This document shows positions 47,091 to 60,610 of a stretch of DNA of 64,000 nt, piece after piece; the stretch's first letter is position 1, and each line of letters starts with the position of its first letter. The notes below the pieces were generated by a model that saw nothing but the letters and a program-made list of their open reading frames with translations, was not told where the DNA came from and did no database searches. The stretch spans positions 1 to 64,000 of the IMG/VR virus record IMGVR_UViG_3300020470_003428; one strand, 5' to 3'. Both the position numbers and the translations under genes were made by a program. The stretch is from a virus.

Positions 47091-47732
47091 TTAGTGATAT
47101 AGAAGAGCAAAGGGTTGGTCTATAGGACCGTAAGCAAGATCATCTTTCTTATCAATAGGAAGATTAAGCTTGGCAGCTTCTTCCTCTGAGCGAACGACTC
47201 TTGCATTTCGTGGAAAATCAACAGGGTTGATTAAGTGATCGAAGCGACCTCCCCAACTAGCAGAGAGTCTGTAGTTGTCAGGTCTTTTGACATCCAAGAA
47301 TAAAGGTAAATTCTTGGTGTAAGAGTAATGAATCAGATGATTAATCTCTTTAGAAGTATTAAAAATTGCATCACGGAGTTTAACCGAGTCGCAATCACCT
47401 GAAACAAACCATCTCACTTTCTCAGCTTTTTTGAAGCCTTTATGGGTAGAGATGGATATGACCATGAGGTCAGTAAGATCTGTAAGAGTTAGAGAATCTA
47501 TAAGATCTTTGTTATGCCAACGAGCCTTACGGACATTGGGATAACGAGCTTCCATACGTGCTGCATAGCAGTCATATAAAAGGTTGGCAGCTTTAGTGAG
47601 CTTGCCTGTCTCTCTGTCAGAAATAACGTGACAGTGCTTAGCACCAGGACAGCAATGGCCAGCTGGTGTGCTAAAGGTGAGGATGGTGTCGGCAAGCTTG
47701 AGGTTACCTGCCCCAAGCTTTAATAGATCCAT
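47091..47732 (-). CDS. GP88-like protein
   Basis: GNLKL..FSTPAG..CPGA..C...CYA, RW.VSGD, YSYTK; start at ATG 47732 next to the repeat motif. Confidence 0.7.
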   Translation of the reverse strand: MDLLKLGAGNLKLADTILTFSTPAGHCCPGAKHCHVISDRETGKLTKAANLLYDCYAARMEARYPNVRKARWHNKDLIDSLTLTDLTDLMVISISTHKGFKKAEKVRWFVSGDCDSVKLRDAIFNTSKEINHLIHYSYTKNLPLFLDVKRPDNYRLSASWGGRFDHLINPVDFPRNARVVRSEEEAAKLNLPIDKKDDLAYGPIDQPFALLYH

Positions 47733-47792
47733 AAAAGTACTGATGAAAAGATCCAACAAAAAATCCCTCTGCGCCCACCAACGCAAAGGGAT
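47733..47792 (-). promoter_or_regulatory. cassette element copy (hairpin/U-tract + CTTTTCATCAGTAC)
   Basis: ATCCCTTTGCG...CGCAGAGGGAT TTTTT GTTGGATCTTTTCATCAGTACTTTT ATG. Confidence 0.8.
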
Positions 47793-47895
47793 CTTAAGCC
47801 TGGGCTTACGTGAGATGATATGAATTAATGCTTCTCTATCACTGGATTCATACCATACCCTTTCTGTCTCACGGCCAGAAAAGGTTACATGAATC

Positions 47896-48078
47896 TTAGT
47901 CCATTGAATCTAAGCTGTTATGGAATCTGATCTTCTTTGTTGGCGTATCAAATTCTGCTATAAATTCATTAATCCTTTCAATCATTGCGATTGTGGATGG
48001 AGTGGTGGGGATCTTAGATAAAACGTCATCTCGGAGAGAGACTAATTCGTTTCTAGTTACTTCAATGGAACGGTGCAT
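47896..48078 (-). CDS. hypothetical protein
   Basis: 60-aa ORF. Confidence 0.45.
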   Translation of the reverse strand: MHRSIEVTRNELVSLRDDVLSKIPTTPSTIAMIERINEFIAEFDTPTKKIRFHNSLDSMD

Positions 48079-48129
48079 TGTGCGGATGTGGGATAGATGT
48101 TGCAGATTGGTTGAACAGAAGTCACAGAC

Positions 48130-48312
48130 TTAGCTGCTTCTTCTATTAGTTTTAGGAAGTTTTGCCGATGATCGGATGTCAATTGTGTCAATGTTTCCAT
48201 CAGGAAATAGGGGTTGTCCGTCTGTATTTAATTGGTATCTAAGGGAACGCTTATAGCTGCCTTCCCTTAGTCTATATTTTTGACTGTATGTTTTACGTTT
48301 ATGCTTGCCCAT
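48130..48312 (-). CDS. basic hypothetical protein
   Basis: 60-aa ORF. Confidence 0.4.
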   Translation of the reverse strand: MGKHKRKTYSQKYRLREGSYKRSLRYQLNTDGQPLFPDGNIDTIDIRSSAKLPKTNRRSS

Positions 48313-48553
48313 TATCAGGTATTAGCATCGCTTGCGCTACTGGAGTGGGTTCTGATTTACCTTCGAACATCACGTAGTACCCTGGGTGAGTACGTCCGTT
48401 AGTGTATTTCAGATCTTTTCTGCCACAGATAACACCCTTCTTGGTGCGAAGGGTTCCATTGCGGTCAGGTTTAAGCACTTTGTCTCCTAATTTGAACTTG
48501 GCTCCTTCAGTCTTATTAGACCTCTTCTTGAGCTTGTAATTAGTGTCCGGCAT
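48299..48553 (-). CDS. SH3/KOW-like hypothetical protein
   Basis: KFKLGDKV...GVI...YYVMF; likely ATG 48553. Confidence 0.5.
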   Translation of the reverse strand: MPDTNYKLKKRSNKTEGAKFKLGDKVLKPDRNGTLRTKKGVICGRKDLKYTNGRTHPGYYVMFEGKSEPTPVAQAMLIPDNGQA

Positions 48554-49619
48554 AGAATTTAACTTTCGGATGGTCAAGCAAGTGGTTAGTAAAGCTAGCA
48601 TTTAATCTGGCTATTGGGCCATCAAGCTGCTGAGCAAATCTTGCTTCGTCCCCATTTTTAACGTGTTTTGTGTGACTTGTAAATTGGGTGACTGCAGAAT
48701 GAACACTAAACATATTGTTTTGTCTTGTTTCCAGTTCGCTTCCTATGAGATCTCCTTTGAAGATCCTTTCTAATTGATTCAAGAACTTACTCTTGATCGG
48801 AGAGTTAGGGAACTGAAGGGCATGGCCTCTGTCTTCCTCTGGAATCATATCTTGGAAAAATTCACGCATTAACACAACACCTTCTTCTTGAGAACATGGT
48901 GTATTAATCATGCGGATTTTGTCTTTGATATATTGTTCGCCAGTGGTGATAGCAGCATCCATTGCTTGTTCTACGTCGATAATGTCACGCTTTTGCCTAT
49001 GACTTACTCTTGTGTCTGACCCTTGTACTCGACGTGTCATCCCATTGTCACAAACCAATTCATTTGCATAAACAGTTGCTCTCATGGATTGAGCCTTGAG
49101 ATAGTTGATGGTGTACATCAAAAAGAAGTCGGTAGTATCACCAACTTTTCTTAACTCAGGAGGATTAAGGTTGGTCATCTTAGAAAAGAAGTACAAGACT
49201 TTCTGTTCTGGCAACCAACCAATACCATCAAGGGTAATGTCGGGTTTGTTCTCTATGGATTTCTTGTACCAATTCAATGCGTCTACTGGATTAACAATGA
49301 ATCTTTTATCTGAGAATTGACCTAACTTATCTCCAGTATTGCTTTGATACCAATGGACTACGTTAGGATATTCTTTATCAAAATTTCTAGAGTAAAGAGT
49401 TTCAGGCTCTACCGTCCAGTTACAACCAATTGATTTCAATTGTTCTTCTGTTGTTTGCCAATCTCTACACTCTGATTTATATCCTTGGAAGAACTTAGCG
49501 TCTTCTCGAGTTAACTTACCGGGGACAAATACAGTTGAACCTGGGTCATCAATTTCTTTTGTACAGATACCTGCCGTTGTTTGAGAACGAGGCATAGCTT
49601 GGGTGGGAGTAATAGTCAT
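48540..49619 (-). CDS. DUF932-like protein
   Basis: NWTV, ELVCDNGM, RVSH, SAVTQFTSH. Confidence 0.7.
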   Translation of the reverse strand: MTITPTQAMPRSQTTAGICTKEIDDPGSTVFVPGKLTREDAKFFQGYKSECRDWQTTEEQLKSIGCNWTVEPETLYSRNFDKEYPNVVHWYQSNTGDKLGQFSDKRFIVNPVDALNWYKKSIENKPDITLDGIGWLPEQKVLYFFSKMTNLNPPELRKVGDTTDFFLMYTINYLKAQSMRATVYANELVCDNGMTRRVQGSDTRVSHRQKRDIIDVEQAMDAAITTGEQYIKDKIRMINTPCSQEEGVVLMREFFQDMIPEEDRGHALQFPNSPIKSKFLNQLERIFKGDLIGSELETRQNNMFSVHSAVTQFTSHTKHVKNGDEARFAQQLDGPIARLNASFTNHLLDHPKVKFYAGH

Positions 49620-49631
49620 TGAAGGATAGGG

Positions 49632-49865
49632 TTAAGGACTTCTGAGTGCTAGATCTGTTGCAATATCTTCAACAATGATCTCAATAGCGGTGAGATCTCT
49701 GCGAAGAGAAGGATCTAATTTGGGTTTAATCTTACGTAACTTCCCAAGTATGAAAGTTACGTTGTCTTTTGTATTAAGAGGTGGTTGATTCTCCTGTTCT
49801 TGAACTCGCTTCAATAAGAGTTTGTTCTGCCTGAACTTCGTCAAGTCTGTTATCTTGCTCATCAT
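49632..49865 (-). CDS. hypothetical protein
   Basis: 77-aa ORF. Confidence 0.45.
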   Translation of the reverse strand: MMSKITDLTKFRQNKLLLKRVQEQENQPPLNTKDNVTFILGKLRKIKPKLDPSLRRDLTAIEIIVEDIATDLALRSP

Positions 49866-50499
49866 TTACACCTATTAATTGTGAGAAAGGAAGAGGTTGA
49901 TCTAGTTTTCTACAAAGTTCGCAGACTCTATCTTCAAACAACAGTGGATCACGAGTGAATGCAGTACCCTGCACTGGTCTGTTATCCGTGTTGAAGATAT
50001 TGGCAAAGATGCCACCTTTGGATCCTCTAGATGTGTATATCGTGCCGTAAATATCCCAGAGGTCAAGATTGTTTGTTATGTGGTAGTCGATAATCGACTC
50101 TAAGTCTCCTAACAGGGTTGCAGGTGCGCATTGTATGAGCTTTTTACCTGTATCAGGGTTAACTAGGCCTCCACATCTCATCTTGAGAATACCTGTGACA
50201 ACTTCATCTGTTCGCTCAAGATCAGGAAGGATATTGAACGTTTGAAAAATGAAGTTTAAATAAGGTGTCTTTTGCCCTTTGCTGAAGTGATGGCTGACTC
50301 TAAGGACAGGCTTGCTCCAGAAGACAAGACCTTCGTTTTTCTCTAGCGTGAACGCTGGATTGTCAGGAGTCTGACCATAACCATAGATACAGCCGGATCC
50401 ATTAATACCCATGACTACAGTGTTAGTCTCGGGTTTGAACTGTCTAGTAGTGTCAACTACAGCAGTATCAGTGGTGAGAGAACTCGTGTTAGAACTCAT
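49774..50499 (-). CDS. hypothetical protein
   Basis: ATG 50499 (MSSNTS) downstream of a motif copy. Confidence 0.55.
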   Translation of the reverse strand: MSSNTSSLTTDTAVVDTTRQFKPETNTVVMGINGSGCIYGYGQTPDNPAFTLEKNEGLVFWSKPVLRVSHHFSKGQKTPYLNFIFQTFNILPDLERTDEVVTGILKMRCGGLVNPDTGKKLIQCAPATLLGDLESIIDYHITNNLDLWDIYGTIYTSRGSKGGIFANIFNTDNRPVQGTAFTRDPLLFEDRVCELCRKLDQPLPFSQLIGVNDEQDNRLDEVQAEQTLIEASSRTGESTTS

Positions 50500-50518
50500 A
50501 AAACAAAAGCAACAACAT

Positions 50519-50550
50519 AAAACGTACTGATGAACAGCCGCACAAAAAGC
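50519..50550 (-). promoter_or_regulatory. cassette motif copy (no clear hairpin)
   Basis: + strand GTACTGATGAA at 50524. Confidence 0.65.
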
Positions 50551-50582
50551 TCTCCTAAGATAGGAATAATCGCATCTTTCAG

Positions 50583-51110
50583 ATGGAACTACATAACGCT
50601 CCTGTACCAGAATCTCCAGACCAACCAAAGTTGGCACTAATGGTGCAAGGAGAATCTTACGAAGATAAAGTGGGAGCTATTGGAGAGAAGTTGGTTTTAT
50701 TAGCTGCGTTTGCCAAAGAATTACAGACACAATCTCACCTTATTCATTTCAACTACGAAGGATCTAATTTCCTTGCAGTGCATCAGTTCTTAAAGGATCA
50801 GTATGAATTACATACAGAGCAATTTGATACCTTAGGCGAGTTGGTGAGGACTCTTAATTATTGGATGCCTATGTGTTCTAAAGGATTAAAAGAATCGTTA
50901 GGTCCTTGCTTCAAGCATTGCGATTGCTACGAGGGAAATGCAATGCTGGCTACGTATTATAGAAATCTAGAATCATTCTCTAGCATGGTCAAGATGGTTG
51001 AACCAGCTGCTCAAGAAACACAGCATTACGATATTGCTAATTATCTAGGCGAATTGATTGGTCAGATATGGAAAACTTGCTGGATGGTTAAAGCTACTCT
51101 GAAGAATTAG
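50583..51110 (+). CDS. Dps/ferritin-like protein
   Basis: HFNYEGSNFLAVHQFL..QYE......DTLGE..R; WMVKA. Confidence 0.8.
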   Translation: MELHNAPVPESPDQPKLALMVQGESYEDKVGAIGEKLVLLAAFAKELQTQSHLIHFNYEGSNFLAVHQFLKDQYELHTEQFDTLGELVRTLNYWMPMCSKGLKESLGPCFKHCDCYEGNAMLATYYRNLESFSSMVKMVEPAAQETQHYDIANYLGELIGQIWKTCWMVKATLKN

Positions 51111-51417
51111 AGCCATCGAAATCTTCTATTGCTTGTTCAAAATCACTTGCTGTGAGTTCAGCTGGTTTATCAGATGGCAACGTATGAATCACAGGTGGTT
51201 TACTACTAGTAATATTTTCTTCTTCTTCGGTATTGCATAGCCATTTAACAATAGTGACAGGAAAGGTTAGAGACTGTTCTTCTCTACCTCTGACTTCTAG
51301 CATTATTTTGGATGTCAGCCATCCTATTAATGCTTCCTTAGTAGCGAATGTATCTAATTCTTCCGACTTAGGACCAGAAACGCCTTGTCTTACTGCGTAT
51401 ACTTGTTGAAGGGGCAT
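51094..51417 (-). CDS. hypothetical protein
   Basis: 107-aa ORF. Confidence 0.5.
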   Translation of the reverse strand: MPLQQVYAVRQGVSGPKSEELDTFATKEALIGWLTSKIMLEVRGREEQSLTFPVTIVKWLCNTEEEENITSSKPPVIHTLPSDKPAELTASDFEQAIEDFDGSNSSE

Positions 51418-51446
51418 AGCCTTGTTTGATCTGACAATATATTAGT

Positions 51447-51635
51447 TCAACTGTAGTCATATGTCGGTAGAACTTGCCACACATCTGCTGAGCCTCTTTT
51501 GCAGGCTGGAATAGTTTTCAGAAATCTTTCCATGGCTGTATGAGACGTACATCCATACGCTAAGAAATGGAAGGGAAACGACTCCCCTGGCGGTCGGTAT
51601 CGAACTTGCCAGTCACCTAAGTATGTGTGTTGCAT
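51447..51635 (-). CDS. hypothetical protein
   Basis: 62-aa ORF. Confidence 0.4.
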   Translation of the reverse strand: MQHTYLGDWQVRYRPPGESFPFHFLAYGCTSHTAMERFLKTIPACKRGSADVWQVLPTYDYS

Positions 51636-51636
51636 A

Positions 51637-51792
51637 TCAGTAAGATGGAACGTCTAAAAAAGCTTCGTCTTTACAATCGCTAGAGCAGGTTTGGTCGTTG
51701 AGAGCGCATTCAGATAAGCATTCAAAGTATTGATCTATTTCATCTAGTTGAGTCGCGTCTTTAGGTAGGAGAGTGGGTGAAATGGTCTTCAT
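51637..51792 (-). CDS. small Cys-rich protein (CxxxC...CxxxC)
   Basis: GGGAGG RBS before MKTISP; DQYFECLSEC...CSSDC resembles a picocyanobacterial small-protein family. Confidence 0.55.
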   Translation of the reverse strand: MKTISPTLLPKDATQLDEIDQYFECLSECALNDQTCSSDCKDEAFLDVPSY

Positions 51793-52053
51793 GTTGGTGC
51801 CTCCCTGCGTGTCTGTGTTTGGCTTTTCTCTGGATACCATAGAGAATAATAAACCAGGAAAAGAATCCTAATAAGTCTAAGAAAGTCATAAAAATAATTC
51901 CAGTAGTGAAAACAATAGTCTGCTAGTATTACCTGCCTCGGGGAATTAAAGTGATATTTTTAACTGCACTTCCTTTCGTCCACTTGATTCTCACCCTGTG
52001 AGCAGGGAACTTGTAGGATAATTTAACCCATTGGATGAAGCGTTTGAAATGTT

Positions 52054-52287
52054 TCATAAATCTATAAGTTCTTTAATGAGTAGATATTCTGTCTGGGCAT
52101 TACGCCAAGGAATTAGTTTGGCATGTCCTCCTGCTCCTTTCTTGAAAGAATAAGAGAGGACTCGACTGCCTGATCTTTTCCATGCGTAACAATCCCTTTG
52201 GTCTTTAGAGCAAACAGAAATAGTTTTACCTAGTTCTAGCTCTAAGAGAACACTTTTGCGAAGATGATCATCGTTGTTCTTCTTCAT
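52054..52287 (-). CDS. hypothetical protein
   Basis: 77-aa ORF. Confidence 0.45.
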   Translation of the reverse strand: MKKNNDDHLRKSVLLELELGKTISVCSKDQRDCYAWKRSGSRVLSYSFKKGAGGHAKLIPWRNAQTEYLLIKELIDL

Positions 52288-52510
52288 TTTCTTTGCGTTC
52301 CTCCTCGAAGAAATGTTCTAAGGCAGGATCTCCTATGCAATGTTGAATGTTATAGGAGTCCAAGGTATAAGGAGGTGGATAGTCGCTTTTGATAGGCCAT
52401 TCCACCTCCGGAGAGATAGTGATCTCTTCTGGTAATGGCTCAATAGAACTGTCTGCAATCTTTCCATCCTTAATAGTGAGAATGATTTTGTAATCTTGCA
52501 TCGTATTCAA
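52268..52510 (-). CDS. hypothetical protein
   Basis: 80-aa ORF. Confidence 0.45.
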   Translation of the reverse strand: MNTMQDYKIILTIKDGKIADSSIEPLPEEITISPEVEWPIKSDYPPPYTLDSYNIQHCIGDPALEHFFEEERKENEEEQR

Positions 52511-52532
52511 TACCTATTGAGACATATATTAG

Positions 52533-53192
52533 TTATGTATCAGCCTCTTGGCTAAATTGTCGTTGCCTTCTGATTTGGCCGTTAGCAATAAAGTCTTTAC
52601 CACTGTTAATGGCACAGGAGACAACGGATCTTTGAATATGGTCGACTGTGAAAGCAGGTTTGCATCCTAAGCGTTTAGCAGCATAAAGCATGCCATCGCA
52701 TAGTTGCTCAATCATGTACTTAAAGTCTGGGTCCAACTGTCCAAAAGAGTCAGTGGTATTGATACCATCTGCTCCGTAGTTGTCTGGGTAACCTTCAAAT
52801 CCAGCTTCTTGCCAGTCTGTTGAAATGAACGTAGAGTCGTCTTCCATTTTCGTGTTGCTTGCTTGTTGCTCGTCGCTAAAAAGGAGTACGTCGACGCCGA
52901 GGTCACGGTCGTATTGGATTCTTGTTGTGTAATGGTTTCCTTCGATTGGAGTTCCATCTGTGCTGAATGGCTCTCCTTTCTTGAATAACTCAGCGACTCT
53001 TTCTCGTGCTGATGCAGGGAACGCGACTGTTGCATGGACAGGTGCTCCGTTCCTTCCTCTGACGAGGTAGTCGAACCTAACGAACCAATATCCTGCGTGT
53101 GCAGGTTTTGATTTGACGCAGGCTGATGGGACTCCTGTGAATTTGTGGAAGGACTTGTAAGGTGTTTTGGCTTTCGTAGGGGTGGTAACCAT
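52533..53192 (-). CDS. hypothetical protein
   Basis: 219-aa ORF with globular composition. Confidence 0.6.
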   Translation of the reverse strand: MVTTPTKAKTPYKSFHKFTGVPSACVKSKPAHAGYWFVRFDYLVRGRNGAPVHATVAFPASARERVAELFKKGEPFSTDGTPIEGNHYTTRIQYDRDLGVDVLLFSDEQQASNTKMEDDSTFISTDWQEAGFEGYPDNYGADGINTTDSFGQLDPDFKYMIEQLCDGMLYAAKRLGCKPAFTVDHIQRSVVSCAINSGKDFIANGQIRRQRQFSQEADT

Positions 53193-53395
53193 TTGACTGA
53201 ATAGGTGGGTGGGATGAAATGGGTAACGATAGCTTCTATGTCTCGAAGACAGAAAACAATAGAGTCTCCTTGTCTGGAGGAGTTGCCTCCGACAAATACA
53301 TCAGTCCATAGGAAAGCTAACGCTTCTTGCGTAACAGGAGTAAGGAAAACTTCACTAGCTCCTTTACGTGTTGAGACTAAGAAGTCATGTGTCAT
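52712..53395 (-). CDS. hypothetical protein (first ~70 aa credible, remainder overlaps the next gene)
   Basis: ATGA-coupled to gp157-like gene. Confidence 0.4.
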   Translation of the reverse strand: MTHDFLVSTRKGASEVFLTPVTQEALAFLWTDVFVGGNSSRQGDSIVFCLRDIEAIVTHFIPPTYSVKWLPPLRKPKHLTSPSTNSQESHQPASNQNLHTQDIGSLGSTTSSEEGTEHLSMQQSRSLHQHEKESLSYSRKESHSAQMELQSKETITQQESNTTVTSASTYSFLATSNKQATRKWKTTLRSFQQTGKKLDLKVTQTTTEQMVSIPLTLLDSWTQTLST

Positions 53396-54054
53396 TCGAA
53401 TCTAAAAGCTCGACGATTGTGCATCTTAACTCCTTGGAATTGAACTCCATGTTTAAGGTGGTCTTTGATGGCTGATTTCTTAATAGAAACAGATACTTCT
53501 TTACAATCAAGAGGTATTTCTTCCCAATCGATATTGTCGTAGTCGATATCAATGACATTAGAAACCATCTTGGACTTCATCTCGAAGCTTGGAAAGCTGT
53601 ATTTAGTTTCGTTCGGATGTAAGACGCTCATAACATCTAGGATCCTTTCCTCTATTTGATCAGCCTTGCGTTGAGCTTCCGAAGCTAAAGCATTTAGTCT
53701 CTTGACTTCTTGCTTACGTGCTTGCACCAAGGAGAGATATTTCTGCCTGAGGTGAAGGATACGATCAGCTTCTTGTTCGAACTGTTCAGACTTACTTAAA
53801 TACTCCTGAATGCTCTGATATAATTCATCTCTTTCTTCGTCTGTTTCTACATCTGCAAGTGAATCTATTAAGATCTCAATCGGACTTAAAGATCCTTTGC
53901 TTTGAATGTCGAGGTCGAAGGATGAAATCTGGGACTTTAGTTGGTTGGAGATCCCCTTCGCAGAGGTCACCGGAGTAGAGGGCGAGGCAGTAGTTACCTG
54001 CGTCTTCTGTTGTGTCGAAGCTTTCGACCCATTGGAGGTTGGTTTTGTGGTCAT
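53392..54054 (-). CDS. siphovirus Gp157-like protein
   Basis: Coiled coil ARKQEVKRL..L; IP.D......IKKSAIKDHLK.G. Confidence 0.7.
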   Translation of the reverse strand: MTTKPTSNGSKASTQQKTQVTTASPSTPVTSAKGISNQLKSQISSFDLDIQSKGSLSPIEILIDSLADVETDEERDELYQSIQEYLSKSEQFEQEADRILHLRQKYLSLVQARKQEVKRLNALASEAQRKADQIEERILDVMSVLHPNETKYSFPSFEMKSKMVSNVIDIDYDNIDWEEIPLDCKEVSVSIKKSAIKDHLKHGVQFQGVKMHNRRAFRFE

Positions 54055-54268
54055 GAATTTGAATCCTTTTGAAATTGTCTCGATAAGGAGTGGCTGTGTA
54101 TCTATCCATGGGTTCTACCGAGTCTTGAGGTAAGTAGGCAGACCAATGAACGTACACGTCTTGCTTTGGGCTGTGGAATATCCTGAAGGGATTCATGTGA
54201 ACTATCAATCGCTTCAAGAAGTTGTTGAATTCCGTCATTGCGGCAATTGATCTTAGAAGCAGAACCAT
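53876..54268 (-). CDS. hypothetical protein
   Basis: 130-aa ORF; 3' end overlaps the next gene. Confidence 0.4.
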   Translation of the reverse strand: MVLLLRSIAAMTEFNNFLKRLIVHMNPFRIFHSPKQDVYVHWSAYLPQDSVEPMDRYTATPYRDNFKRIQIHDHKTNLQWVESFDTTEDAGNYCLALYSGDLCEGDLQPTKVPDFILRPRHSKQRIFKSD

Positions 54269-54313
54269 GTGCTAGCATTTCTAACTTGTAGGTAATTAGA
54301 TGATGCCGAATAA

Positions 54314-54407
54314 AACAAGTTTTGGGTAGTCCTGGTCTTAAGCTTTAGCCAGAAAAGTGGAGCAGACCATCCACAAGATTGGATTGCAGCCAGGACTATC
54401 ACTTGTT
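54314..54407 (-). other. long intergenic stem-loop (possible RNase III site/structured RNA)
   Basis: AACAAGT and TAGTCCTGG pair with CCAGGACTA and ACTTGTT; inner ATCCA/TGGAT hairpin. Confidence 0.55.
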
Positions 54408-54843
54408 ATGCAGCAGCAGTGGCTTGCTTCTTGGCAGTATTATTCTTAGCAATGGCAGCATTGTCAGCGGCTGACTGTTGAACCATCTTTGCTATGTACT
54501 CGCCAGAGATTGTCCAGCCTTGGTAGACTCTAGTTTCGTAGGTCTGACCTGTGGTAGGACATGTGAAGTCTTCTCCTTCTACAACTGGGCATGACATCAG
54601 TTCAGCGACAGAAGTCTTTTTGATGATCTCAGCACAGTCTTCATAGGAAGTTTTGAAAACTCTAGGGATACCTTCGTACTTACCACCGAGTCGGTTAAGT
54701 TGCCATGCGTTGACAGTGGCACCACCTTCTCTGTATCGGTAATACGTAAGGAGACCACCGAAGAACTCTGCAAATGCAGGATCATCTTTGGTGTAGAAAT
54801 TGGGTTTGGTTTTGGTGTTCATTGTGATTGTGAACGTGAACAA
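54406..54843 (-). CDS. hypothetical protein
   Basis: 145-aa ORF (alternative start 54822) after a motif copy. Confidence 0.6.
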   Translation of the reverse strand: MFTFTITMNTKTKPNFYTKDDPAFAEFFGGLLTYYRYREGGATVNAWQLNRLGGKYEGIPRVFKTSYEDCAEIIKKTSVAELMSCPVVEGEDFTCPTTGQTYETRVYQGWTISGEYIAKMVQQSAADNAAIAKNNTAKKQATAAA

Positions 54844-54860
54844 CCCCCATCATCAACACA

Positions 54861-54886
54861 AAAAGTACTGATGAAAAAGGTCAAAT
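54861..54886 (-). promoter_or_regulatory. cassette motif copy (no clear hairpin)
   Basis: + strand AAAAGTACTGATGAAAAAGG. Confidence 0.75.
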
Positions 54887-54939
54887 AAGAAAATGAAACA
54901 ACGTTAAACTATAGAGAGAACGGTTGTTTCATTGAATCG

Positions 54940-55563
54940 ATGGCTGAACAGAGGGTAAGACGTAGAGACATAGCAATGGCTGCTCTACAGGAGAAATTAG
55001 CTGAACTACAGCAGAAGGTTGGAAATATTCCACAAGGTATTACCGATAAAGCTCAGTCATTAGAGCAAATGGTGATAAATCAAGCATCTGATAGGGCTCG
55101 TAACGCTAGAACTCAGCAGATTAGTAATATTTCTGGGGGATATAGGCGTCAAGCAGAGAAAGGAAATGAGCAGATATTCAAATTATTAGCAGCTGCAATA
55201 TTCGAGGAGGCAAATGATGTGACTGTCGCTGCTGTTAAACAACGCATAGGAACACACGGATTAGATTCTGTAGTTCAGGAAGCTGCAAAGAATACAGCTA
55301 GACCAAAATACAGTGTTAATACTGCATATCAATCTGTTAACGAGGCAATTGCTAATGATCCAAATATCAGAAGAGTAGGTGGACCCGTAGCGGCAGCAGC
55401 TGGTGCAGTAGCAGGAACTGGAGCATTAATGGAATGGAATGATCCTGACAGAGGTTTTGCAATCGTAGCTGGACCTAATGTCAATCAGGCAGCGATGCAG
55501 GATATCATAGAATTCCTAGAGAATGGTGATCCTCTAAGAAGAGAGACAGAAACAATCGCATGA
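54940..55563 (+). CDS. hypothetical Ala/Gln-rich protein
   Basis: 207-aa ORF. Confidence 0.6.
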   Translation: MAEQRVRRRDIAMAALQEKLAELQQKVGNIPQGITDKAQSLEQMVINQASDRARNARTQQISNISGGYRRQAEKGNEQIFKLLAAAIFEEANDVTVAAVKQRIGTHGLDSVVQEAAKNTARPKYSVNTAYQSVNEAIANDPNIRRVGGPVAAAAGAVAGTGALMEWNDPDRGFAIVAGPNVNQAAMQDIIEFLENGDPLRRETETIA

Positions 55564-55790
55564 GATTAGCTGGCGACCTATTTGATTTTGATCTGACCGA
55601 GGGTTTAACTGCAGGTAATATTGACAGCCTGAGGCGTGGCTTCAGGGCTGACAAGATGATACCTAGGTCTTTAACTCGTGGTTTCTATGATATTAAAGAT
55701 ATACAGAGGAATGAGATGGCTCCTGAGAATAGCGAGCCTGAATATACATTGACAGGTGCTTACCAGCCTGAAGTCACCTATGGGCTTTAA
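55560..55790 (+). CDS. hypothetical protein
   Basis: ATGA coupling. Confidence 0.5.
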   Translation: MRLAGDLFDFDLTEGLTAGNIDSLRRGFRADKMIPRSLTRGFYDIKDIQRNEMAPENSEPEYTLTGAYQPEVTYGL

Positions 55791-56392
55791 GTCTCGATCT
55801 TATCTCCGTAATAATTAACATTAATCACTGACCTATAAGGTTTATCGGTACAAGTAGCACCTCTATGTGGATATTTGTTGGAGAAGATAATAGCTCTATT
55901 AGCAACAGTATCTATCTTTTGTTCGAAGTTGTCTAAGTCTGGGTGTTGAACATTGGTCCATCCATTACATGTATTTAAATGGATGATGGCAACCATGCAA
56001 TTGTCTCCGTATGCCTCAGGTGGATTTTCGTCATGGTGGTAGGGAGCAGGTATATGCTTTCCTTTTGCACAGTTAAGGTTGACCTTAATTCTGACAGGCA
56101 CTCTGGATTTGAGGGCAAACAGCATAGGAATGAATCTATTGAAATGTTGAGATATATGAAATTCTGGTGAGACAGAGTAATGGTTAGCTACGAATTGAAG
56201 ATTAGCGTCAGGTGGTAAGTCTTTGAAATACTCTATATATCGTTTCTTCTCACTATCTGGCATATTAGGGTCTCCTATACCAGAAATAGTGCTTATCTCC
56301 CAAGGTTGATAGACTTCGCACCAATGGTTAAGTTCGTCGAAGTATTTCTTATCTAGGAAGTTATCAATGATTTGGACGTCTTCTAGTGCCAT
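55787..56392 (-). CDS. 2OG-Fe(II) oxygenase-like protein
   Basis: RIKVNL...YHHD...AIIHLNTCNG.T...ANR..IF....HRG...R.VINVNY. Confidence 0.8.
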   Translation of the reverse strand: MALEDVQIIDNFLDKKYFDELNHWCEVYQPWEISTISGIGDPNMPDSEKKRYIEYFKDLPPDANLQFVANHYSVSPEFHISQHFNRFIPMLFALKSRVPVRIKVNLNCAKGKHIPAPYHHDENPPEAYGDNCMVAIIHLNTCNGWTNVQHPDLDNFEQKIDTVANRAIIFSNKYPHRGATCTDKPYRSVINVNYYGDKIET

Positions 56393-56469
56393 TAGTAATT
56401 TTGATAGACATAGTTAACAATAAGGTAAACGCTGACAACAATAATTGCCAATAATAAGAGGTGAGTCAT
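56392..56469 (-). CDS. 25-aa hydrophobic peptide (not in track)
   Basis: MTHLLLLAIIVVSVYLIVNYVYQNY; TAATG-coupled; preceded by a degenerate motif copy. Confidence 0.5.
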   Translation of the reverse strand: MTHLLLLAIIVVSVYLIVNYVYQNY

Positions 56470-56527
56470 GGGTGCTGATGTAAGAGAGAAAAAAAGCCCT
56501 AACAGTTAGAGCTATTAGGGCAATATA

Positions 56528-56899
56528 TTAGTCCTTGTTTGGGTAGAAGTTGGGGTACTTCTTCTTGCTTATAACGTGATTGTTTATATTACGAGGCACA
56601 CCTCGCTTATCACGGTAGACGCAAATTTCACCATCGTAAAACTCAGCTAGAAATTGAGCTAGTTCTAGTGGTACGTTCCTCATTGCAAAGAGGAGTTTAA
56701 CTATAAGAGGGATAATTGGTCGAGAGGCTGCATTAATAAAACGAGCAAGAAGGTCAAGGATGTTCTTTGCCTTCCGATAGGTTTTCATTGCGAATTCGGA
56801 AAGTCTTGCCATAAGATTAACGCGGTTTGACTCATTTAGCTCTTCATAGTCAATGTCAAGGACTTCTCCAGGGACTTCGGTAGTCAGGATGGAGTTCAT
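56528..56899 (-). CDS. cassette hypothetical protein
   Basis: ATG 4 nt after motif. Confidence 0.6.
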   Translation of the reverse strand: MNSILTTEVPGEVLDIDYEELNESNRVNLMARLSEFAMKTYRKAKNILDLLARFINAASRPIIPLIVKLLFAMRNVPLELAQFLAEFYDGEICVYRDKRGVPRNINNHVISKKKYPNFYPNKD

Positions 56900-56954
56900 A
56901 AAAGTACTGATGAAAAGGTACAAAAAAGCCCCACCTCAAGGGCAGGGCTGGGGT

Positions 56955-57137
56955 TTAAATGTGAGATTCATCAAGAGTGTCGTCAAAGAGCAGTTGGTCG
57001 GCTGCATAGCCTTCAACATCCGGAATCTCGTCAGGTTCATAAATGTTCTCTCCGACAGGGATGCCATCGGAGTTCTTTATGATCTTGTGAGGGTTGGCCT
57101 TCATAGGAAAGCCTTCGAAGCCACGTCGGTCACTCAT
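56955..57137 (-). CDS. small acidic protein
   Basis: TAATG-coupled second gene of a cassette. Confidence 0.5.
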   Translation of the reverse strand: MSDRRGFEGFPMKANPHKIIKNSDGIPVGENIYEPDEIPDVEGYAADQLLFDDTLDESHI

Positions 57138-57436
57138 TAGTTATCCTCGTTGAGGTCTGAGTATTCTGACATAGCCTTCTCTTGTTTGGACTCGAGTTCA
57201 GCCTGACGCTTGGCATAATCAACAAGTTGCATCTTGCTTTGATCGTGAGACCATTTCAAGATGTCATATCTATGGTTGATCTTTTCAAGTAGAGTCTTGT
57301 GAATTCTCTCTAGGCCGGGCTTATTGAAGAGGTGCATAGCATCAAGAAGAGCTAGTGCCTCCTTAACAGTGATCCATCCTAGATCGATATCAAGATCTTC
57401 TACTTTGGGTTCAGGTTGATCGTACTTAGATAGCAT
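57137..57436 (-). CDS. cassette hypothetical protein
   Basis: ATG 3 nt after motif. Confidence 0.6.
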   Translation of the reverse strand: MLSKYDQPEPKVEDLDIDLGWITVKEALALLDAMHLFNKPGLERIHKTLLEKINHRYDILKWSHDQSKMQLVDYAKRQAELESKQEKAMSEYSDLNEDN

Positions 57437-57502
57437 GTCGTACTGATGAAAAGGTACAAAAAAGCCCCATCCAGCATGTGAAAGCTAGACAGGGCTGTTG
57501 GG

Positions 57503-58087
57503 TTAGAAGTCAGCGATAGCAGTATTCTCTTTAGGAGCGCTAGTCAAGACATCGAAGGCAAAAACCTTCTTGCTTGGGTTGTAGCGCAGAGTCTTCTCTT
57601 TCTGACCAGTAGGTTGACCATTGTCATCCAAGATGTCTCTTAGTTCAATGTCTTCCTTCTTTGAGTACCATTCCCAGTAGAGTCTTACAACTGCATATTC
57701 AGTCGTGTCAACCAATTCCATGATTTGGTCTCCTACTGGGTTTGGCTCTGCCTCTGTGCCATTGTTCCAGAAGTCAAACCAGGTTTCCCTGACTTTAACT
57801 TTCTGGTACTTGCCGTCACCCATGAAGATGTCGACTGACTCTCTTACAGGAGCAACAAAGAGGTTAGGAGAGATAACTGTGCCATCTTTCCTAGTACCAG
57901 GTTTTGCATAATTGATCAGACCAACCGTAGTAAAGTCTGCCCTCTGCTTACGGATCTCTAGCTTAGAAAGGGTTGGAGACTGAGCAGCTAATAGCTCCTC
58001 ATATTTATCAGCAACCTCATTCTTTGTGCCAGATGCAATCCTTTGCTTAGGAGTCATTTCTGCAAAAGTGGTAGAAGCGTTAGCCAT
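57503..58087 (-). CDS. cassette hypothetical protein (beta-rich, possibly OB-fold)
   Basis: ATG 58087 (MANAST) 17 nt after motif. Confidence 0.6.
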   Translation of the reverse strand: MANASTTFAEMTPKQRIASGTKNEVADKYEELLAAQSPTLSKLEIRKQRADFTTVGLINYAKPGTRKDGTVISPNLFVAPVRESVDIFMGDGKYQKVKVRETWFDFWNNGTEAEPNPVGDQIMELVDTTEYAVVRLYWEWYSKKEDIELRDILDDNGQPTGQKEKTLRYNPSKKVFAFDVLTSAPKENTAIADF

Positions 58088-58163
58088 AGTACGCAGCACT
58101 AAAAGTACTGATGAAAAGGTACAAAAAAGCCCCCACTCAGAGAAGTTGAGCAGGGGCGTTGGG

Positions 58164-58340
58164 TTAGTCAGTCCAAAAATCGAAGCTACTATCCCAGCCT
58201 TCAGCTGAAATATGTCTATAGGCATCGATACGAGCGTGGGCTCTTTGGGCTGACCCGTCTTCTAAGAATGAAAGCAACGCTGCACGTATAGAATCTTGTG
58301 CGGTGGCAGGCCGACCTTCATATAAAAAACTAGAAGCCAT
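58164..58340 (-). CDS. cassette protein (58 aa, not in track)
   Basis: MASSFLYEGRPAT...WDSSFDFWTD; fills the space between two elements. Confidence 0.6.
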   Translation of the reverse strand: MASSFLYEGRPATAQDSIRAALLSFLEDGSAQRAHARIDAYRHISAEGWDSSFDFWTD

Positions 58341-58422
58341 GGTGGTGAGCAGTACCTAAAACGTACTGATGAAAATGGACAAAAAACCCCCACTCATACA
58401 AAAAATGAGCAGGGGTGTGGGG

Positions 58423-58575
58423 CTAGGCATCATATTCCTCTACGACCTTCTTGATATGTTCAAATTCTCTTTCGATGATCTCTAACTCTGCAGGAGTGAA
58501 TAGAGAATGCATCTCTTCTTTGAACTGAAGGTTGGACTTAGCAATTTCCAAGGAATTAGGCTGACCGTTAAACAT
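58423..58575 (-). CDS. cassette protein (50 aa, not in track)
   Basis: MFNGQPNSLEIAK...KVVEEYDA; fills the space between two elements. Confidence 0.6.
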   Translation of the reverse strand: MFNGQPNSLEIAKSNLQFKEEMHSLFTPAELEIIEREFEHIKKVVEEYDA

Positions 58576-58638
58576 AACGTACTGATGAAAGGGAACGAAA
58601 AACCCCCACTCAGAGAGAAACTGAGCAGGGGTGTTGGG

Positions 58639-58899
58639 TTAGAAAGGGAGATCGTCGTACTGACTTGAGTCTCCTACCTTCGCAGGTAAGGACTCATTCT
58701 CGATTCTTATCAGATTGTCAATAACTGTGTCTTTGATCCTGATCAACTGTTTCTGCGTTAGAACTTGGCTGTGGCCATGCTCAAGCAAATCCATGATCGT
58801 CTCAAAGCGAGACAGGCCGACCTCAGTCCTAGAAGGAGGCTGGGGAGTGGCTTTGAAATCTGCGTAAGGAGAGGAGATTTGTGGCGCTTGTGTCGTCAT
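58639..58899 (-). CDS. cassette protein ending in DDLPF (SSB-tail-like)
   Basis: ATG 58899, 7 nt after motif. Confidence 0.6.
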   Translation of the reverse strand: MTTQAPQISSPYADFKATPQPPSRTEVGLSRFETIMDLLEHGHSQVLTQKQLIRIKDTVIDNLIRIENESLPAKVGDSSQYDDLPF

Positions 58900-58961
58900 C
58901 GTAAAAGTACTGATGAAAAGGGACAAAAATACCCCCACTCAAGCAGAGCAGGGGCAAAACT

Positions 58962-59339
58962 TTAATGCCAAACTAAGCCTTCTTTACATATTTCTAGAAT
59001 CTCAAGGGATCTATCATATGTCAGATCGGCGTTGGCAGAGAGGAGGAGCCTGAGACAGAGCTCGGGATCTTTGGTGGATCCGATGGACTCATCCTCAGGA
59101 ATGAGACTGAGATCAAACTTACCCCATCCGTAAGACAGGAAGTCACGATATTTAGCAATAGGACCACCCTCGACAGCGACATGAAATGCTAAATCAACTT
59201 CGTCGATCTCCATTTTCTCGTAAGCGCAGTCCAAGGCATTCATAAGGATCTGGTAGTAATCGGCAATCCCAGAACGGACGCCGGCTAACTTCTCAAGATC
59301 ACTATCTGAACACTTAGCAGGATAAAGACGCGTACCCAT
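58962..59339 (-). CDS. cassette hypothetical protein
   Basis: MGTRLYP...YGWGKF; ATG 3 nt after motif. Confidence 0.65.
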   Translation of the reverse strand: MGTRLYPAKCSDSDLEKLAGVRSGIADYYQILMNALDCAYEKMEIDEVDLAFHVAVEGGPIAKYRDFLSYGWGKFDLSLIPEDESIGSTKDPELCLRLLLSANADLTYDRSLEILEICKEGLVWH

Positions 59340-59408
59340 AATGTACCGATGAAAAGGAACAAAAAAACCCCACCTAGCGGCGGGGTAGCGCGCAGTAGTA
59401 CGGAACTA

Positions 59409-59564
59409 CTACATGAATACAGGAGCTAAAGGATTGAAGAATCTAGTGACAGACTGACCAACCCAGTACCAACGGATGACAGTGCCTAGGGCTATGCAGA
59501 TGGCGAGATACCAGCCGGTATGCTCCATTGCAAAGTCAACAACGTCATGGAATAAGCGATTCAT
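59409..59564 (-). CDS. cassette small membrane protein
   Basis: ATG 59564, one TM helix. Confidence 0.55.
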   Translation of the reverse strand: MNRLFHDVVDFAMEHTGWYLAICIALGTVIRWYWVGQSVTRFFNPLAPVFM

Positions 59565-59629
59565 GGAATGTACTGATGAAAGGGTACAAAAAACCCCCAC
59601 TTCATAGAAACGAAGCAGGGGATTTAAGG

Positions 59630-59833
59630 TTATGACCACTGTCTAACGACTTGTGGATTACCTTGACCGAAGGCTGTCCTCCACTGCTGAAGCTGGTGGA
59701 AAGCATCCTTTGGGCCAAGATCAGGGACTAACTTGCCTAACCGTCTGCACTTAGCACTCATGATCACACCATGCCTGGAGATGATGGCGAGCTTATTACC
59801 TTGTGCAAAATCGTAGCGAGTTTCAGTAAACAT
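59630..59833 (-). CDS. first cassette protein
   Basis: ATG 6 nt after motif. Confidence 0.55.
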   Translation of the reverse strand: MFTETRYDFAQGNKLAIISRHGVIMSAKCRRLGKLVPDLGPKDAFHQLQQWRTAFGQGNPQVVRQWS

Positions 59834-59860
59834 GAAAATGTACCGATGAAAAGTGACACT

Positions 59861-60610
59861 AACATCGGATTAACATAGTTTTGACATACGTCTACGCTTG
59901 GTAGCCATCAAAGGAACAATAGCTACAAGCGAATGTTATGTGAGAAGAATTGCGTAGCAATTCGAACACAAACATGAGCGACAATAAGGATAGCGAATAG
60001 CGAATATTACTGTGATGAATCACGAAGTGATTTACACATAATATGAGCGTAATGAGCGTTCAAAGGTTCCCCAGTGATGCGTAAACGCAGCAGCTATGTA
60101 GGGTTGTCAAGGGATTTGGCGCACTCGCAAGCGCAAGAGGGAGGCGTGGGATAAACGCGCTATGCATGCGCATATACGCTGGATAACTGTTGCTAACGCA
60201 GAAGACAAAGGGGAACAGGTGAACGCACAAGAGTTGACAAAGGAACGCGTCCCTCAAGCGAGCGATTGATGCGCTAATTAGGAACTAATTACGCACAATT
60301 GCGAGCGCTAATTAACACACACTTAACAGAAACGTTGCGTCGCTTAACATCAGAGCAACATCGGTGCGCTAGAATCGCCCCTTATTTTTTTGTTTACGCG
60401 GTATCGCAACTTGCAGTGGGTGTTTGATGTATAGCGCGGAGAGCAAAAAATTAGCAATTTCTCCCGCGAGGCTATATAGGGAATAACATCGCTTCATAGT
60501 GAAAATTCGCGACGTCAAATTCTGTGAAATTTTTTGTTCCCTATTTCCCGCGAGGCGCTTACCGGCGAAACCCTAGTAATCAGAGCCGATAGACTTGTAA
60601 TACGTGGAAT
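59861..60610. other. non-coding divergent control/terminus region
   Basis: GNA-triloop hairpins, AGCG repeats, CG-rich direct repeats; transcription diverges here. Confidence 0.55.

Follow-up and report, generated by a model that had tools for sequence, protein, structure and literature searches.

In T4-type phages, promoter-early stem-loop (PeSL) cassettes have been described (Arbiol et al. 2010, PMC2839356; Comeau et al. 2014, PMC4122927), and both the promoter and terminator activity of their elements and the occurrence of mini-circles were demonstrated experimentally (PMC2839356; PMC4122927). The repeats reported here, known from sequence, belong to an uncultured S-EIV1-like marine cyanophage with a genome of 80,539 bp (80.5 kb), whose probable host is Prochlorococcus; the window analyzed comprises 64,000 nt (positions 1 to 64,000 of IMG/VR record IMGVR_UViG_3300020470_003428). 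They resemble PeSL elements in that a terminator stem-loop lies directly 5' of a (here putative) promoter heading a small gene of unknown function, in the clustering of cassettes in a hypervariable region, in the breaks that insertions, deletions and replacements in close relatives make within the elements, and in the existence of lineage-specific sequence variants. They differ from PeSL elements in having neither the -35/N17/-10 sigma-70 consensus nor a Shine-Dalgarno sequence, in being far more compact (hairpin and ATG lie about 30 nt apart), in their nearly invariant, phage-private core, and in belonging to a lineage and a cyanobacterial host unrelated to the PeSL phages and their hosts. 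We consider it reasonably probable that these repeats are PeSL-like terminator-promoter modules carrying a non-canonical, phage-private putative promoter, with initiation inside the core.

The array spans 47.7–59.85 kb on the minus strand and consists of 12 copies of TTTCATCRGTAC and one degenerate copy; a motif scan recovered exactly the 12 canonical core coordinates listed in the original prediction, which also gave the degenerate site at 56472. When the whole 80,539-bp genome was searched with the 12-mer at 0–1 mismatch, the same 12 sites were the only ones returned, without a copy outside the array. Similarly, CTTTTCATCRGTAC with up to 2 mismatches gave 12 matches, exclusively on the minus strand (shuffle mean 1.09; 12 reached in 0/100 shuffles). 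The elements are as follows:

59840–59853, minus strand: element A, the first array copy, with core CTTTTCATCGGTAC and no GC hairpin; serves the 67-aa gene 59630–59833.
59570–59621, minus strand: element B, terminator hairpin 59594–59621, T-run, core 59570–59583; serves the 51-aa gene 59409–59564.
59343–59386, minus strand: element C, hairpin 59367–59386, core 59343–59356; serves the 125-aa gene 58962–59339.
58907–58956, minus strand: element D, hairpin 58930–58956, core 58907–58920; serves the 86-aa gene 58639–58899.
58579–58632, minus strand: element E, hairpin 58602–58632, core 58579–58592; serves the 50-aa gene 58423–58575.
58363–58416, minus strand: element F, hairpin 58386–58416, core 58363–58376; serves the 58-aa gene 58164–58340.
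58105–58157, minus strand: element G, hairpin 58129–58157, core 58105–58118; serves the 194-aa gene 57503–58087.
57440–57496, minus strand: element H, hairpin 57463–57496, core 57440–57453; serves the 99-aa gene 57137–57436 and the 60-aa ORF 56955–57137.
56904–56949, minus strand: element I, hairpin 56927–56949, core 56904–56917; serves the 123-aa gene 56528–56899.
56472–56521, minus strand: degenerate copy, hairpin 56496–56521, core CATCAGCAC; followed by the 25-aa mini-ORF 56392–56469.
54865–54878, minus strand: element J, at a divergent junction with the plus-strand gene 54940–55563 (distance 62 nt), with an AT-rich stem only; operon head, the first operon gene being the 138-aa gene 54406–54822.
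50524–50537, minus strand: element K, at a divergent junction with the plus-strand Dps-like gene 50583–51110 (distance 46 nt); followed 3' by a 9-codon mini-ORF and then the 241-aa gene 49774–50499.
47737–47790, minus strand: element L, hairpin about 47765–47790, core 47737–47750; operon head, the first gene being GP88-family, 47091–47732.

All 13 copies belong to a single block of genes and share its coding strand, and about 12 small genes are each headed by a stop hairpin and a 12-base signal just before the start codon; judged solely from gene position and content, these cassette genes are presumably early. Both unannotated ORFs that had been proposed to fill gaps between elements (58164–58340 and 58423–58575) exist, and the degenerate copy is genuine, with a terminator before its core and an ATG 2 nt downstream. 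The motif does not occur at operon-internal genes; it follows 10/10 strong terminators and otherwise sits at three points where minus-strand transcription has to restart, namely where the block begins (A) and at the junctions with opposite-strand neighbors (J and K). Strong intrinsic-terminator hairpins lie directly 5' of 10 of the 13 copies (B–I, the degenerate copy and L). Of the terminator-like hits scored on the minus strand between 46.5 and 60.7 kb, the top nine are the hairpins of B–I and the degenerate copy; that of L has a 12-bp stem (dG -29 kcal/mol). The stems contain the U·G/G·U wobble pairs noted earlier, and the sense orientation is the more stable one in 10/12 cases. Copies A, J and K, all at restart points, have no GC-rich hairpin, as had been stated for 59840, 54865 and 50524, but the hairpin is not altogether missing at 54865 (J), which retains an AT-rich stem of 11 bp. 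The motif together with its upstream TG is present in these copies too, in keeping with the view that hairpin and motif are separable modules, and the combination of a strong terminator with a conserved, phage-private signal 3' of it bears out the description of each gene as an insulated expression unit.

Although the core is present as originally described, the conserved unit is longer, since an invariant TG is found 8 nt 5' of CATC, also in copies without a hairpin. Upstream of the core, TTnnTG is kept in 12/12 canonical copies, again including the hairpin-less ones, so that the sequence is constrained both before and after the inferred RNA 5' end. The module signal thus reads TG-N8-CATCRGTAC in this phage and TG-N8-CAnCAGTRC-nTT in general. 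With respect to the sigma-70 consensus, neither a -10 nor a -35 could be placed at the elements, a conserved A at -11 was not found in them, and no conserved -10-like hexamer occurs anywhere in the unit. Further, Prochlorococcus genomes contain 2 motif matches per 1.6–1.9 Mb, without strand bias; the motif is rare there.

The distance from GTAC to the ATG is 3–7 nt in 8 of 12 canonical copies, whereas it is 17–24 nt in F, G and K; in J, the ATG of the 138-aa gene is 42 nt downstream and a GTG mini-ORF begins 5 nt past the core. Leaders accordingly fall into two classes, one of 0–7 nt and one of 13–23 nt with a hairpin that begins at the C of CAGTRC, as in the 22-nt leader of element F (CAGUAC/GUACUG) and the 17-nt, hairpin-forming leader of element G. 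Of 15 long leaders, 13 pair five or more of the six CAGTRC bases (2.9 expected from shuffles), and compensatory change is seen between lineages, CAGUAC/GUACUG in one corresponding to CAGUGC/GCGCUG in another. Contigs of three RNA libraries from two metatranscriptome studies end in the core or at its 3' border, namely at 56909 in element I (on the C of CAGTAC), at 58105 in element G and at 47737 in element L; keeping in mind that these are assembled contigs of low depth and without known strand, 0.11 such ends would be expected (P ~2e-4), and no lower contig end falls in a core. Two other RNA-library contigs cross elements without a break, 59507–59713 at element B and 50375–50573 at element K. 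Because of the leader hairpins and the contig ends, we place the RNA 5' end inside the core. The mRNA is probably not strictly leaderless. The Shine-Dalgarno sequence is indeed absent beside the motif, as had been noted, but this is not distinctive, since GGAG/GAGG precedes just 19 of the 113 other genes of the phage.

Cumulatively, we envisage a full module that fills the interval between one gene's stop codon and the start codon of the gene that follows, in which the G+C-rich hairpin and U-tract would end the upstream transcript and TG-N8-CAnCAGTRC-nTT would act as a compact, phage-private promoter, with initiation within the core, around the CAnC/AGTRC junction. The resulting mRNA would probably carry an unstructured leader of about 8–13 nt, or a 5'-terminal hairpin followed by a 6–10-nt linker, and, having no Shine-Dalgarno sequence, would be translated from the first AUG close to its 5' end. 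Single-subunit phage RNA polymerases (T7, T3, SP6, Syn5) use promoters with about 20 conserved bp at or spanning the start site, which are identical within a genome and altered at a few positions between related phages, and their transcripts often start with a 5' stem-loop. The cyanophage signal is likewise conserved, genome-uniform, lineage-altered and associated with 5' stem-loops, but its sequence is dissimilar to those promoters and the genome has no T7-like RNA polymerase gene (PF00940). The original prediction, that no cognate polymerase or recombinase is recognizable, holds for the window and for the whole genome, in which neither an RNA polymerase nor a sigma factor was detected, a result that speaks against a private promoter for the presumed early genes. 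Crass-like phages inject their own RNA polymerase; we know of none, and detected none, in the S-EIV1 group.

The distribution of the core and the conserved upstream TG favor a promoter over an RNA processing site or an operator. Proximity to the start codon is equally compatible with a translation signal at the RNA level, and the core might bind a ribosome-recruiting or repressor protein in the 5' UTR, or be cut by a sequence-specific endoribonuclease, with unrecognized promoters elsewhere. T4 RegA operators and cleavage by T4 RegB or host RNase E provide parallels; RegB and RegA targets (Shine-Dalgarno sequences of 4 nt or loose AU-rich operators) are likewise short motifs beside start codons in many early mRNAs, but are not tied to transcription-unit heads or terminators. 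Between the core and a start codon there is always either a gap of 0–7 nt or a single hairpin, with mini-ORFs following J, K and the degenerate copy; transcription evidently covers the 3' half of the core, given the compensatory changes in the leader hairpins; the contig ends could be cleavage products; and GP88 orthologues lacking the element have GGAGG instead. We nevertheless regard this explanation as unlikely, because the motif is restricted to transcription-unit heads, little RNA would read through nine strong terminators in succession and be available for processing, a separate promoter at A, J and K would have to fit within 46–62 nt where no sigma-70 consensus is found, and TG-N8, which lies before the inferred 5' end, is kept even in hairpin-less copies.

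A further comparison with relatives, suggested with the original prediction, showed genes gained and lost at elements while the layout was kept and the core changed. In phages whose portal protein is 70–81% identical the exact motif is absent but a homologous element, TG-N8-CAnCAGTRC-ATT, is present, and a search of six genomes for TG-N8-CAnCAGTnC gave 45 occurrences, all of them on the gene strand and none on the opposite one. The core reads CAGCAGTGC in the high-GC genomes G002, G004 and G005, CAnCAGTGC in G001 and CAACAGTGC in L353, being near-uniform within each genome and different between lineages. Upstream of the GP88 homologue the orthologous element preserves the layout with an altered core, and a GGAGG ribosome site replaces it in lineages in which the GP88 gene is operon-internal. 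Such concerted, lineage-specific change is compatible with co-evolution of a DNA-binding protein, and the core could be the operator of a phage repressor or activator that switches the gene class together while host RNA polymerase reads weak flanking signals. Its overlap with the inferred start site, the usual position for a repressor, and the failure to find a polymerase gene agree with this, but we judge it quite improbable: a -10-like hexamer is conserved nowhere in the unit, the core is non-palindromic, and no DNA-binding regulator was recognized among the annotated proteins.

The proposal that the repeats drive PeSL-like cassette shuffling was borne out, as each indel or replacement relative to close relatives breaks at one or more points that fall within an element or on its border. 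Cassette C is deleted in L019, L026, L028 and L030 with the crossover within the element, and cassette E is missing in L019, L023, L026, L029 and L030, while L024 carries at that place a 49-aa ORF without detectable protein similarity to E. The crossover varies by event, falling in the core, the T-run or the 5' arm of the hairpin, and an identical cassette deletion shows at least two distinct crossover points. Single-gene cassettes separated by hairpin-forming repeats that bound their presence, absence and replacement might suggest a dedicated recombination system (integron-attC-like or homing-like) with a secondary link to expression; this is very improbable, given that the genome has no tyrosine or serine recombinase, that variable crossover points are what homologous recombination predicts, and that the hairpins, with their U-tract and strand asymmetry, are terminator-like. 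Under the terminator-promoter reading, homologous recombination between the nearly identical modules of about 60 nt would delete, insert and replace the cassettes.

That the cores are targets of one nearby-encoded trans-acting RNA (a ribozyme or small RNA), as might be read from CUGAUGA, the hammerhead core heptamer, in their reverse complement, is close to refuted by the lack of any Rfam ribozyme match (E up to 1, 46–61 kb) and of any complement of the element of at least 10 nt in non-coding regions, and by CAGCAGTGC in relatives, which has neither CUGAUGA nor an NUH cleavage triplet at a fixed place.

The direct repeats ATGTTAAT/ATGTTAGT precede element A at the head of the array. At the degenerate copy, the 25-aa mini-ORF 56392–56469 adjoins the start of an endonuclease V-like gene (55787–56392).

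Solid evidence stands behind the anatomy and conservation of the element and behind its part in cassette shuffling. With up to two mismatches allowed, CTTTTCATCRGTAC matched 12 times, always on the minus strand (shuffle mean 1.09), and the 12-mer TTTCATCRGTAC with 0–1 mismatch was found in the complete genome at the same 12 places and nowhere else. Every canonical copy of the original prediction, from A at 59840 down to L at 47737, was thus recovered, and the degenerate copy at 56472 was upheld as a thirteenth. Ten of the 13 copies carry a G+C-rich stem of 8–13 bp, with loops of 4–8 nt, followed by a T-run of 5–7 (ΔG −15 to −29 kcal/mol), and these predicted terminators have the make-up of intrinsic ones, namely a G+C-rich stem-loop followed by a U-tract in a strand-asymmetric arrangement. 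When minus-strand sites between 46.5 and 60.7 kb are ranked by likeness to a terminator, the top nine are exactly the hairpins of B–I and of the degenerate copy, and copy L is also preceded by a terminator-like hairpin. The stems include U·G pairs, are mostly weaker on the opposite strand, and vary compensatorily at their inner pairs (CTTCG/TGAAG in B vs. CTCAG/CTGAG in E), as expected from the earlier claim that pairing is kept. Absence of the hairpin, predicted for three copies, is correct for A and K and incorrect for J, where an AT-rich stem is present. TTnnTG is invariant across the aligned copies, the hairpin-less ones included, with TG lying 8 nt upstream of CATC. An ATG opening an ORF follows GTAC by 3–7 nt in eight of the 12 canonical copies and by 17–24 nt in F, G and K; in copy J a GTG mini-ORF comes first, and the main ATG is found 42 nt downstream. 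Synonymous differences that begin at codon 2 in relatives mark these ATGs as real starts.

Minus-strand genes extend from 59.85 kb down to 24.8 kb, with the array at the head of the block. Plus-strand genes, structural genes among them, begin at 60.6 kb, continue across the record end and stop at 24.8 kb. The motif stands after every strong terminator of the minus block and also at the three points where minus-strand transcription must restart: at the first gene (A), at J, 62 nt from the opposite-strand gene 54940–55563, and at K, 46 nt from the Dps-like gene 50583–51110. It is missing from operon-internal genes, including the second gene of cassette H, about ten genes after L and about 12 after J. 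A promoter would be distributed in this way, and a general signal for translation would not. Of ten proteins encoded next to the motif and tested, nine fell into no PHROG or Pfam family, and for most even related genomes offered no homologue. Our preferred reading, which we consider probable, is that the element is a terminator-promoter module resembling the promoter-early stem-loop (PeSL) cassettes of T4-type phages, in which each module would hold a compact, non-sigma-70-like, lineage-private promoter that initiates inside the core, around the junction of CAnC and AGTRC.

The leaders between core and start codon fall into two classes. Short leaders (0–7 nt from core to ATG) have no structure, and long ones (13–23 nt) form a hairpin in which CAGTRC itself is the 5′ arm: at least five of its six bases are paired in 13 of the 15 long leaders, vs. 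2.9 expected from shuffled leaders (P ~3e-8). The 3′ arm tracks the core, being GUACUG here and GCGCUG or GCACU in relatives, and this covariation indicates that the 3′ half of the core is transcribed and that the RNA 5′ end coincides with, or adjoins, the start of the hairpin. Four metatranscriptome runs contain parts of the region, in which stretches without RNA-contig cover are not evidence of silence. Three RNA contigs, drawn from two studies, have an end at 56909 (in I, the C of CAGTAC), 47737 or 58105 (the last core C of L and G, respectively); the expectation for contig ends at cores is only 0.11, and none of the lower ends lies there. This is unlikely to be a k-mer artefact, because the repeats that these copies share should split contigs some 25 nt farther upstream. 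Keeping in mind that the contigs are of low depth and unknown strand, and that two contigs of another run cross elements B and K, we take the RNA ends as a hint only. Together, leader hairpins and contig ends point to an RNA 5′ end around the same CAnC/AGTRC junction, and the AUG would lie 8–13 nt from that end or, in hairpin leaders, beyond the 5′ hairpin and a 6–10-nt linker.

Neither GGAG nor GAGG occurs upstream of the 13 candidate starts checked at the 12 canonical copies. The original statement that a Shine-Dalgarno is lacking therefore holds at the elements and does not set them apart, as only 19 of the 113 other genes of this genome have GGAG/GAGG. Three mini-ORFs stand right after a core and overlap or abut the main gene:

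54782–54859, minus strand, mini-ORF of 25 codons at J
~50490–50519, minus strand, mini-ORF of 9 codons at K
56392–56469, minus strand, mini-ORF of 25 codons at the degenerate copy

Their arrangement fits use of the first 5′-proximal AUG and suggests translational coupling or re-initiation. The core could instead be an RNA-level signal for translation or processing; we think it unlikely, and a signal used in translation generally would not be confined to the heads of transcription units.

In IMG/VR, 131 relatives of the portal protein were found. Five long genomes from this set (portal 70–81% identical) do not contain the exact motif and hold a homologous element composed of a G+C hairpin, T-run, TG, 8 nt, CAnCAGTRC, ATT and ATG. 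Matches to TG-N8-CAnCAGTnC on the gene strand and on the other strand number 9/0 in this genome, 10/0 in G001, 12/0 in G002, 7/0 in G004, 4/0 in G005, 3/0 in G003 and 1/0 in the cultured phage S-EIV1, and they lie mainly in one cluster, the array, per genome. This genome has the core CATCRGTAC, three genomes of 60–62% G+C have CAGCAGTGC, G001 has CAnCAGTGC and the relative's locus L353 has CAACAGTGC. The core is thus near-uniform within a genome and different between lineages, a concerted change of a conserved block that is as expected for co-evolution with a specific reader, i.e. a factor recognising the core. Array genes are mostly unrelated between lineages. The element ahead of a GP88-family gene is orthologous across lineages, with T-run, TG, N8–10, CAnCnnTRC, A/T and ATG kept and the central bases varying. 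Lineages with this element have no GGAGG site at the gene, and in high-GC relatives (L348–L352, ~9900–10001) the GP88-family gene is operon-internal, with a GGAGG ribosome site and no element.

S-EIV1 itself is without the element. Its early region (L020/L021, 39–45 kb, minus strand) has other repeated intergenic blocks before small genes, among them CTGATCCGTCAAAGCGGGT and AAACCCTGGGC...GTAAGTCCCAGGA, each present twice. In G001 (L114, ~49.3–56.0 kb) seven copies of a ~45-nt repeat, GTCGTAATAGAGTTCTACGGCTCCGT, are spread over ~6.6 kb, apparently in opposite-strand coding sequence, and are unrelated to the element. Exact and generalised motif scans of IMG/VR gave, beyond the relatives, mostly single chance matches, and a literature search for the motif strings returned unrelated primers only.

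No sigma-70 consensus was found at any element (19 sites in the region vs. 27 expected by chance), and no TAnnnT is conserved in any register that the start codons would allow. TACnTT/TACCTT was rejected as a −10, since TACnTT lies 0–4 nt from most ATGs and coding evolution begins at codon 2; the original objection that it is too close to the ATG thus stands. TACCTT as −10, TTGTAC as −35 and TG as an extended −10 were likewise discarded, because the A of TACCTT and the A of GTAC are unconserved here and in relatives. By-eye comparison with other known sites showed misfits of spacing or bases for NtcA (GTA-N8-TAC), the cyanobacterial LexA box and the Bacteroidetes TTTG/TAnnTTTG promoter. The general pattern occurs twice per 1.6–1.9 Mb in Prochlorococcus genomes and 24–29 times in Synechococcus genomes, there with no strand bias and never in a T-rich context, so the motif is not a host promoter class. 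The core might also be an operator placed on weak host-type promoters; the lack of a conserved TAnnnT speaks against this, and we rate it as improbable.

The main gap of the promoter model is that no reader was found in the genome, in line with the original remark that a cognate polymerase was not recognisable. Sigma-70 regions 2 and 4 are absent, and T7-like RNA polymerase (PF00940) gave no match at E up to 1, a weak test in that the control genomes cannot give a positive for PF00940. No RNA polymerase family matched the large ORFs or the other proteins scanned, no large ORF has a DFDGD-type motif (only a Ca-binding-like DxDGDG in a 337-aa ORF was seen), and the large proteins without known function had no match among PDB sequences. 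The neighbouring 974/979-aa protein (60611–63550, plus strand), the only ORF above 800 aa, is predicted to be mostly disordered (AlphaFold pLDDT 31.6) and gave nothing in a profile search against PDB sequences. It was rejected as the cognate polymerase, as a protein so variable (34–93% identity) among phages with identical motifs is unlikely to be the reader. The adjoining 1.27 kb (59339–60610, non-coding sequence plus cassettes A and B) is 86–98% identical at the DNA level in relatives, 97–98% in L026 and L030, and identity collapses sharply at the start of the 974/979-aa gene, which suggests that this gene is swapped between lineages. Tentatively, TG-N8-CAnCAGTRC could be the promoter of an unrecognised transcription machinery of the S-EIV1 group, initiating inside the core and with a reader co-evolving by lineage. 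Such machinery could be an RNA polymerase, either encoded by the phage or delivered with the virion, or a sigma-like factor that confers specificity, and its mRNAs would lack a Shine-Dalgarno and have very short or 5′-hairpin leaders.

Loci of relatives were collected from IMG/VR and metagenomes via homologues of the 974-aa protein and DNA pattern scans, and all loci so found have an array with the same motif. Cassettes, each an element with the gene or genes behind it, differ among them as follows.

Cassette content of the array in this genome and in relatives' loci
Window: order A B C D E F G H I J K L
L023, L029: E missing
L026, L030: C and E missing
L028: C missing
L024: a 49-aa ORF at the place of E, with no detectable protein similarity to E
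L030: 226 nt extra at element I
L019, L023, L029: replaced segment upstream of J

By blastn, all these breakpoints lie inside or at the edge of an element. Gene order is therefore not fixed and the motif is kept, as cassette shuffling at the repeats, proposed from the sequence of this phage alone, would have it. The crossover of the C deletion lies in the core in L026 and in the T-run in L030; these differing positions imply at least two events and homologous, not site-specific, recombination. Neither integrase nor resolvase was found in the genome (PF00589 and PF00239 unmatched), in agreement with the earlier failure to recognise a recombinase. A dedicated recombination site, which the breakpoints might call to mind, is accordingly a very improbable function for the repeats.

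PeSLs of T4-type phages show matching indel and replacement behaviour of cassettes (PMC2839356, PMC4122927). The likeness extends to a stem-loop immediately upstream of a promoter (here putative), to a hyperplastic region of small genes mostly without family, and to breakpoints at the elements, exemplified by the deletions of C and E, the segment exchanged upstream of J and the extra sequence at I. In contrast to PeSLs, there is no sigma-70-like early promoter (−35, N17, −10), the start codon at the 3′ end of the element comes without a Shine-Dalgarno, and the phage is S-EIV1-like and not a T4-like myovirus. On these three counts the array falls outside the PeSL family taken strictly, yet the way it works is that of a PeSL. 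Promoters of T7-like single-subunit RNA polymerases comprise a block of about 20 bp that adjoins the start site and changes in concert between related phages; the array has a conserved block with concerted change, and the start site is a putative one. Promoters of N4-type virion RNA polymerases are DNA hairpins with a 5–7-bp stem and a 3-nt loop, used by a giant polymerase, whereas the stems here are of 8–13 bp with loops of 4–8 nt and a T-run, the hairpin is missing at A and K with an AT-rich stem only at J, and the largest ORF is 979 aa. Integron attC cassettes need an integrase and a fixed crossover; here there is no integrase and crossovers vary. Searches against the self-cleaving ribozymes and cis-regulatory RNAs of Rfam 15 gave sub-threshold chance matches only (NsiR1 at 28 bits vs. 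a gathering threshold of 39; L20 leader), the NsiR1 matches being to terminator hairpins B and F (59586–59638 and 58379–58432, minus strand; 28 and 23 bits) and probably reflecting mere terminator likeness. The idea of a hammerhead or trans-acting RNA was rejected, as Rfam gave no ribozyme match and no non-coding region offers 10 nt or more of complementarity to the element, and we give almost no credence to the core as target of a trans-acting RNA.

The S-EIV1 group was reported to be the fourth most abundant group of marine cyanophages, with 3.3% of cyanophage reads (PMC5332604). Promoter-terminator shuffling, described for T4-like phages, operates in an unrelated lineage with a signal, the putative promoter, that is not host-like; new here are the phage lineage, the element and the probable start inside the core. 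To our knowledge the group has a single isolate, and the element is a precise, testable candidate for its early start signal, 20–25 bp long with a defined probable start site and conserved across genomes of 41% to 62% G+C. If a phage-specific factor reads the signal, a new transcription system is within reach, and the elements are potentially useful as compact, insulated expression parts for picocyanobacteria.

The genome record has 80,539 bp, is estimated to be 95% complete, and is covered by the window over bases 1–64000. PHROGs match a large terminase, and the only cultured relative, Synechococcus phage S-EIV1, shares 47% identity in a 745-aa virion (probable portal) protein. The record ends inside psbA, of which 115 N-terminal residues are present (genome 80193–80537, plus strand; 16193–16537 of L009, the remaining part of the genome), probably owing to an assembly break within the gene; the best cellular matches of the fragment are Prochlorococcus D1 proteins (88%). 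From its relatedness to S-EIV1 and the psbA fragment, the phage is a marine cyanophage whose host is probably Prochlorococcus.

Between the array and the plus-strand late block, 59866–60610 comprises ~750 nt of non-coding sequence, partly covered by RNA-library contigs, with a 120-nt block 75% identical to the equivalent G001 region and the repeated motifs AAATAGGGAACAA and CCTCGCGGGA(A/G)A. Direct repeats ATGTTAAT/ATGTTAGT lie just upstream of element A and recur in G001. The region may be the site of a late promoter, an origin or regulator sites. Genes for a MazZ-like protein (26766–27086; dATP/dGTP diphosphohydrolase N-terminal domain PF18909, E 6e-32), a ThyX-like protein (29114–29830) and a dCMP deaminase (32660–33151), all on the minus strand, lie close together and hint at altered nucleotide pools or DNA base modification; PurZ (PF00709) was looked for in the genome and not found, which makes a Z-genome unlikely. 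Finally, a 772-aa protein with a HINT/intein-like domain and DUF4214 repeats is encoded at genome 70375–72693 (plus strand; L009 6375–8693), and its gene contains a tandem coding repeat, GAGCCAAGACC..., in six copies at 71263–71404.
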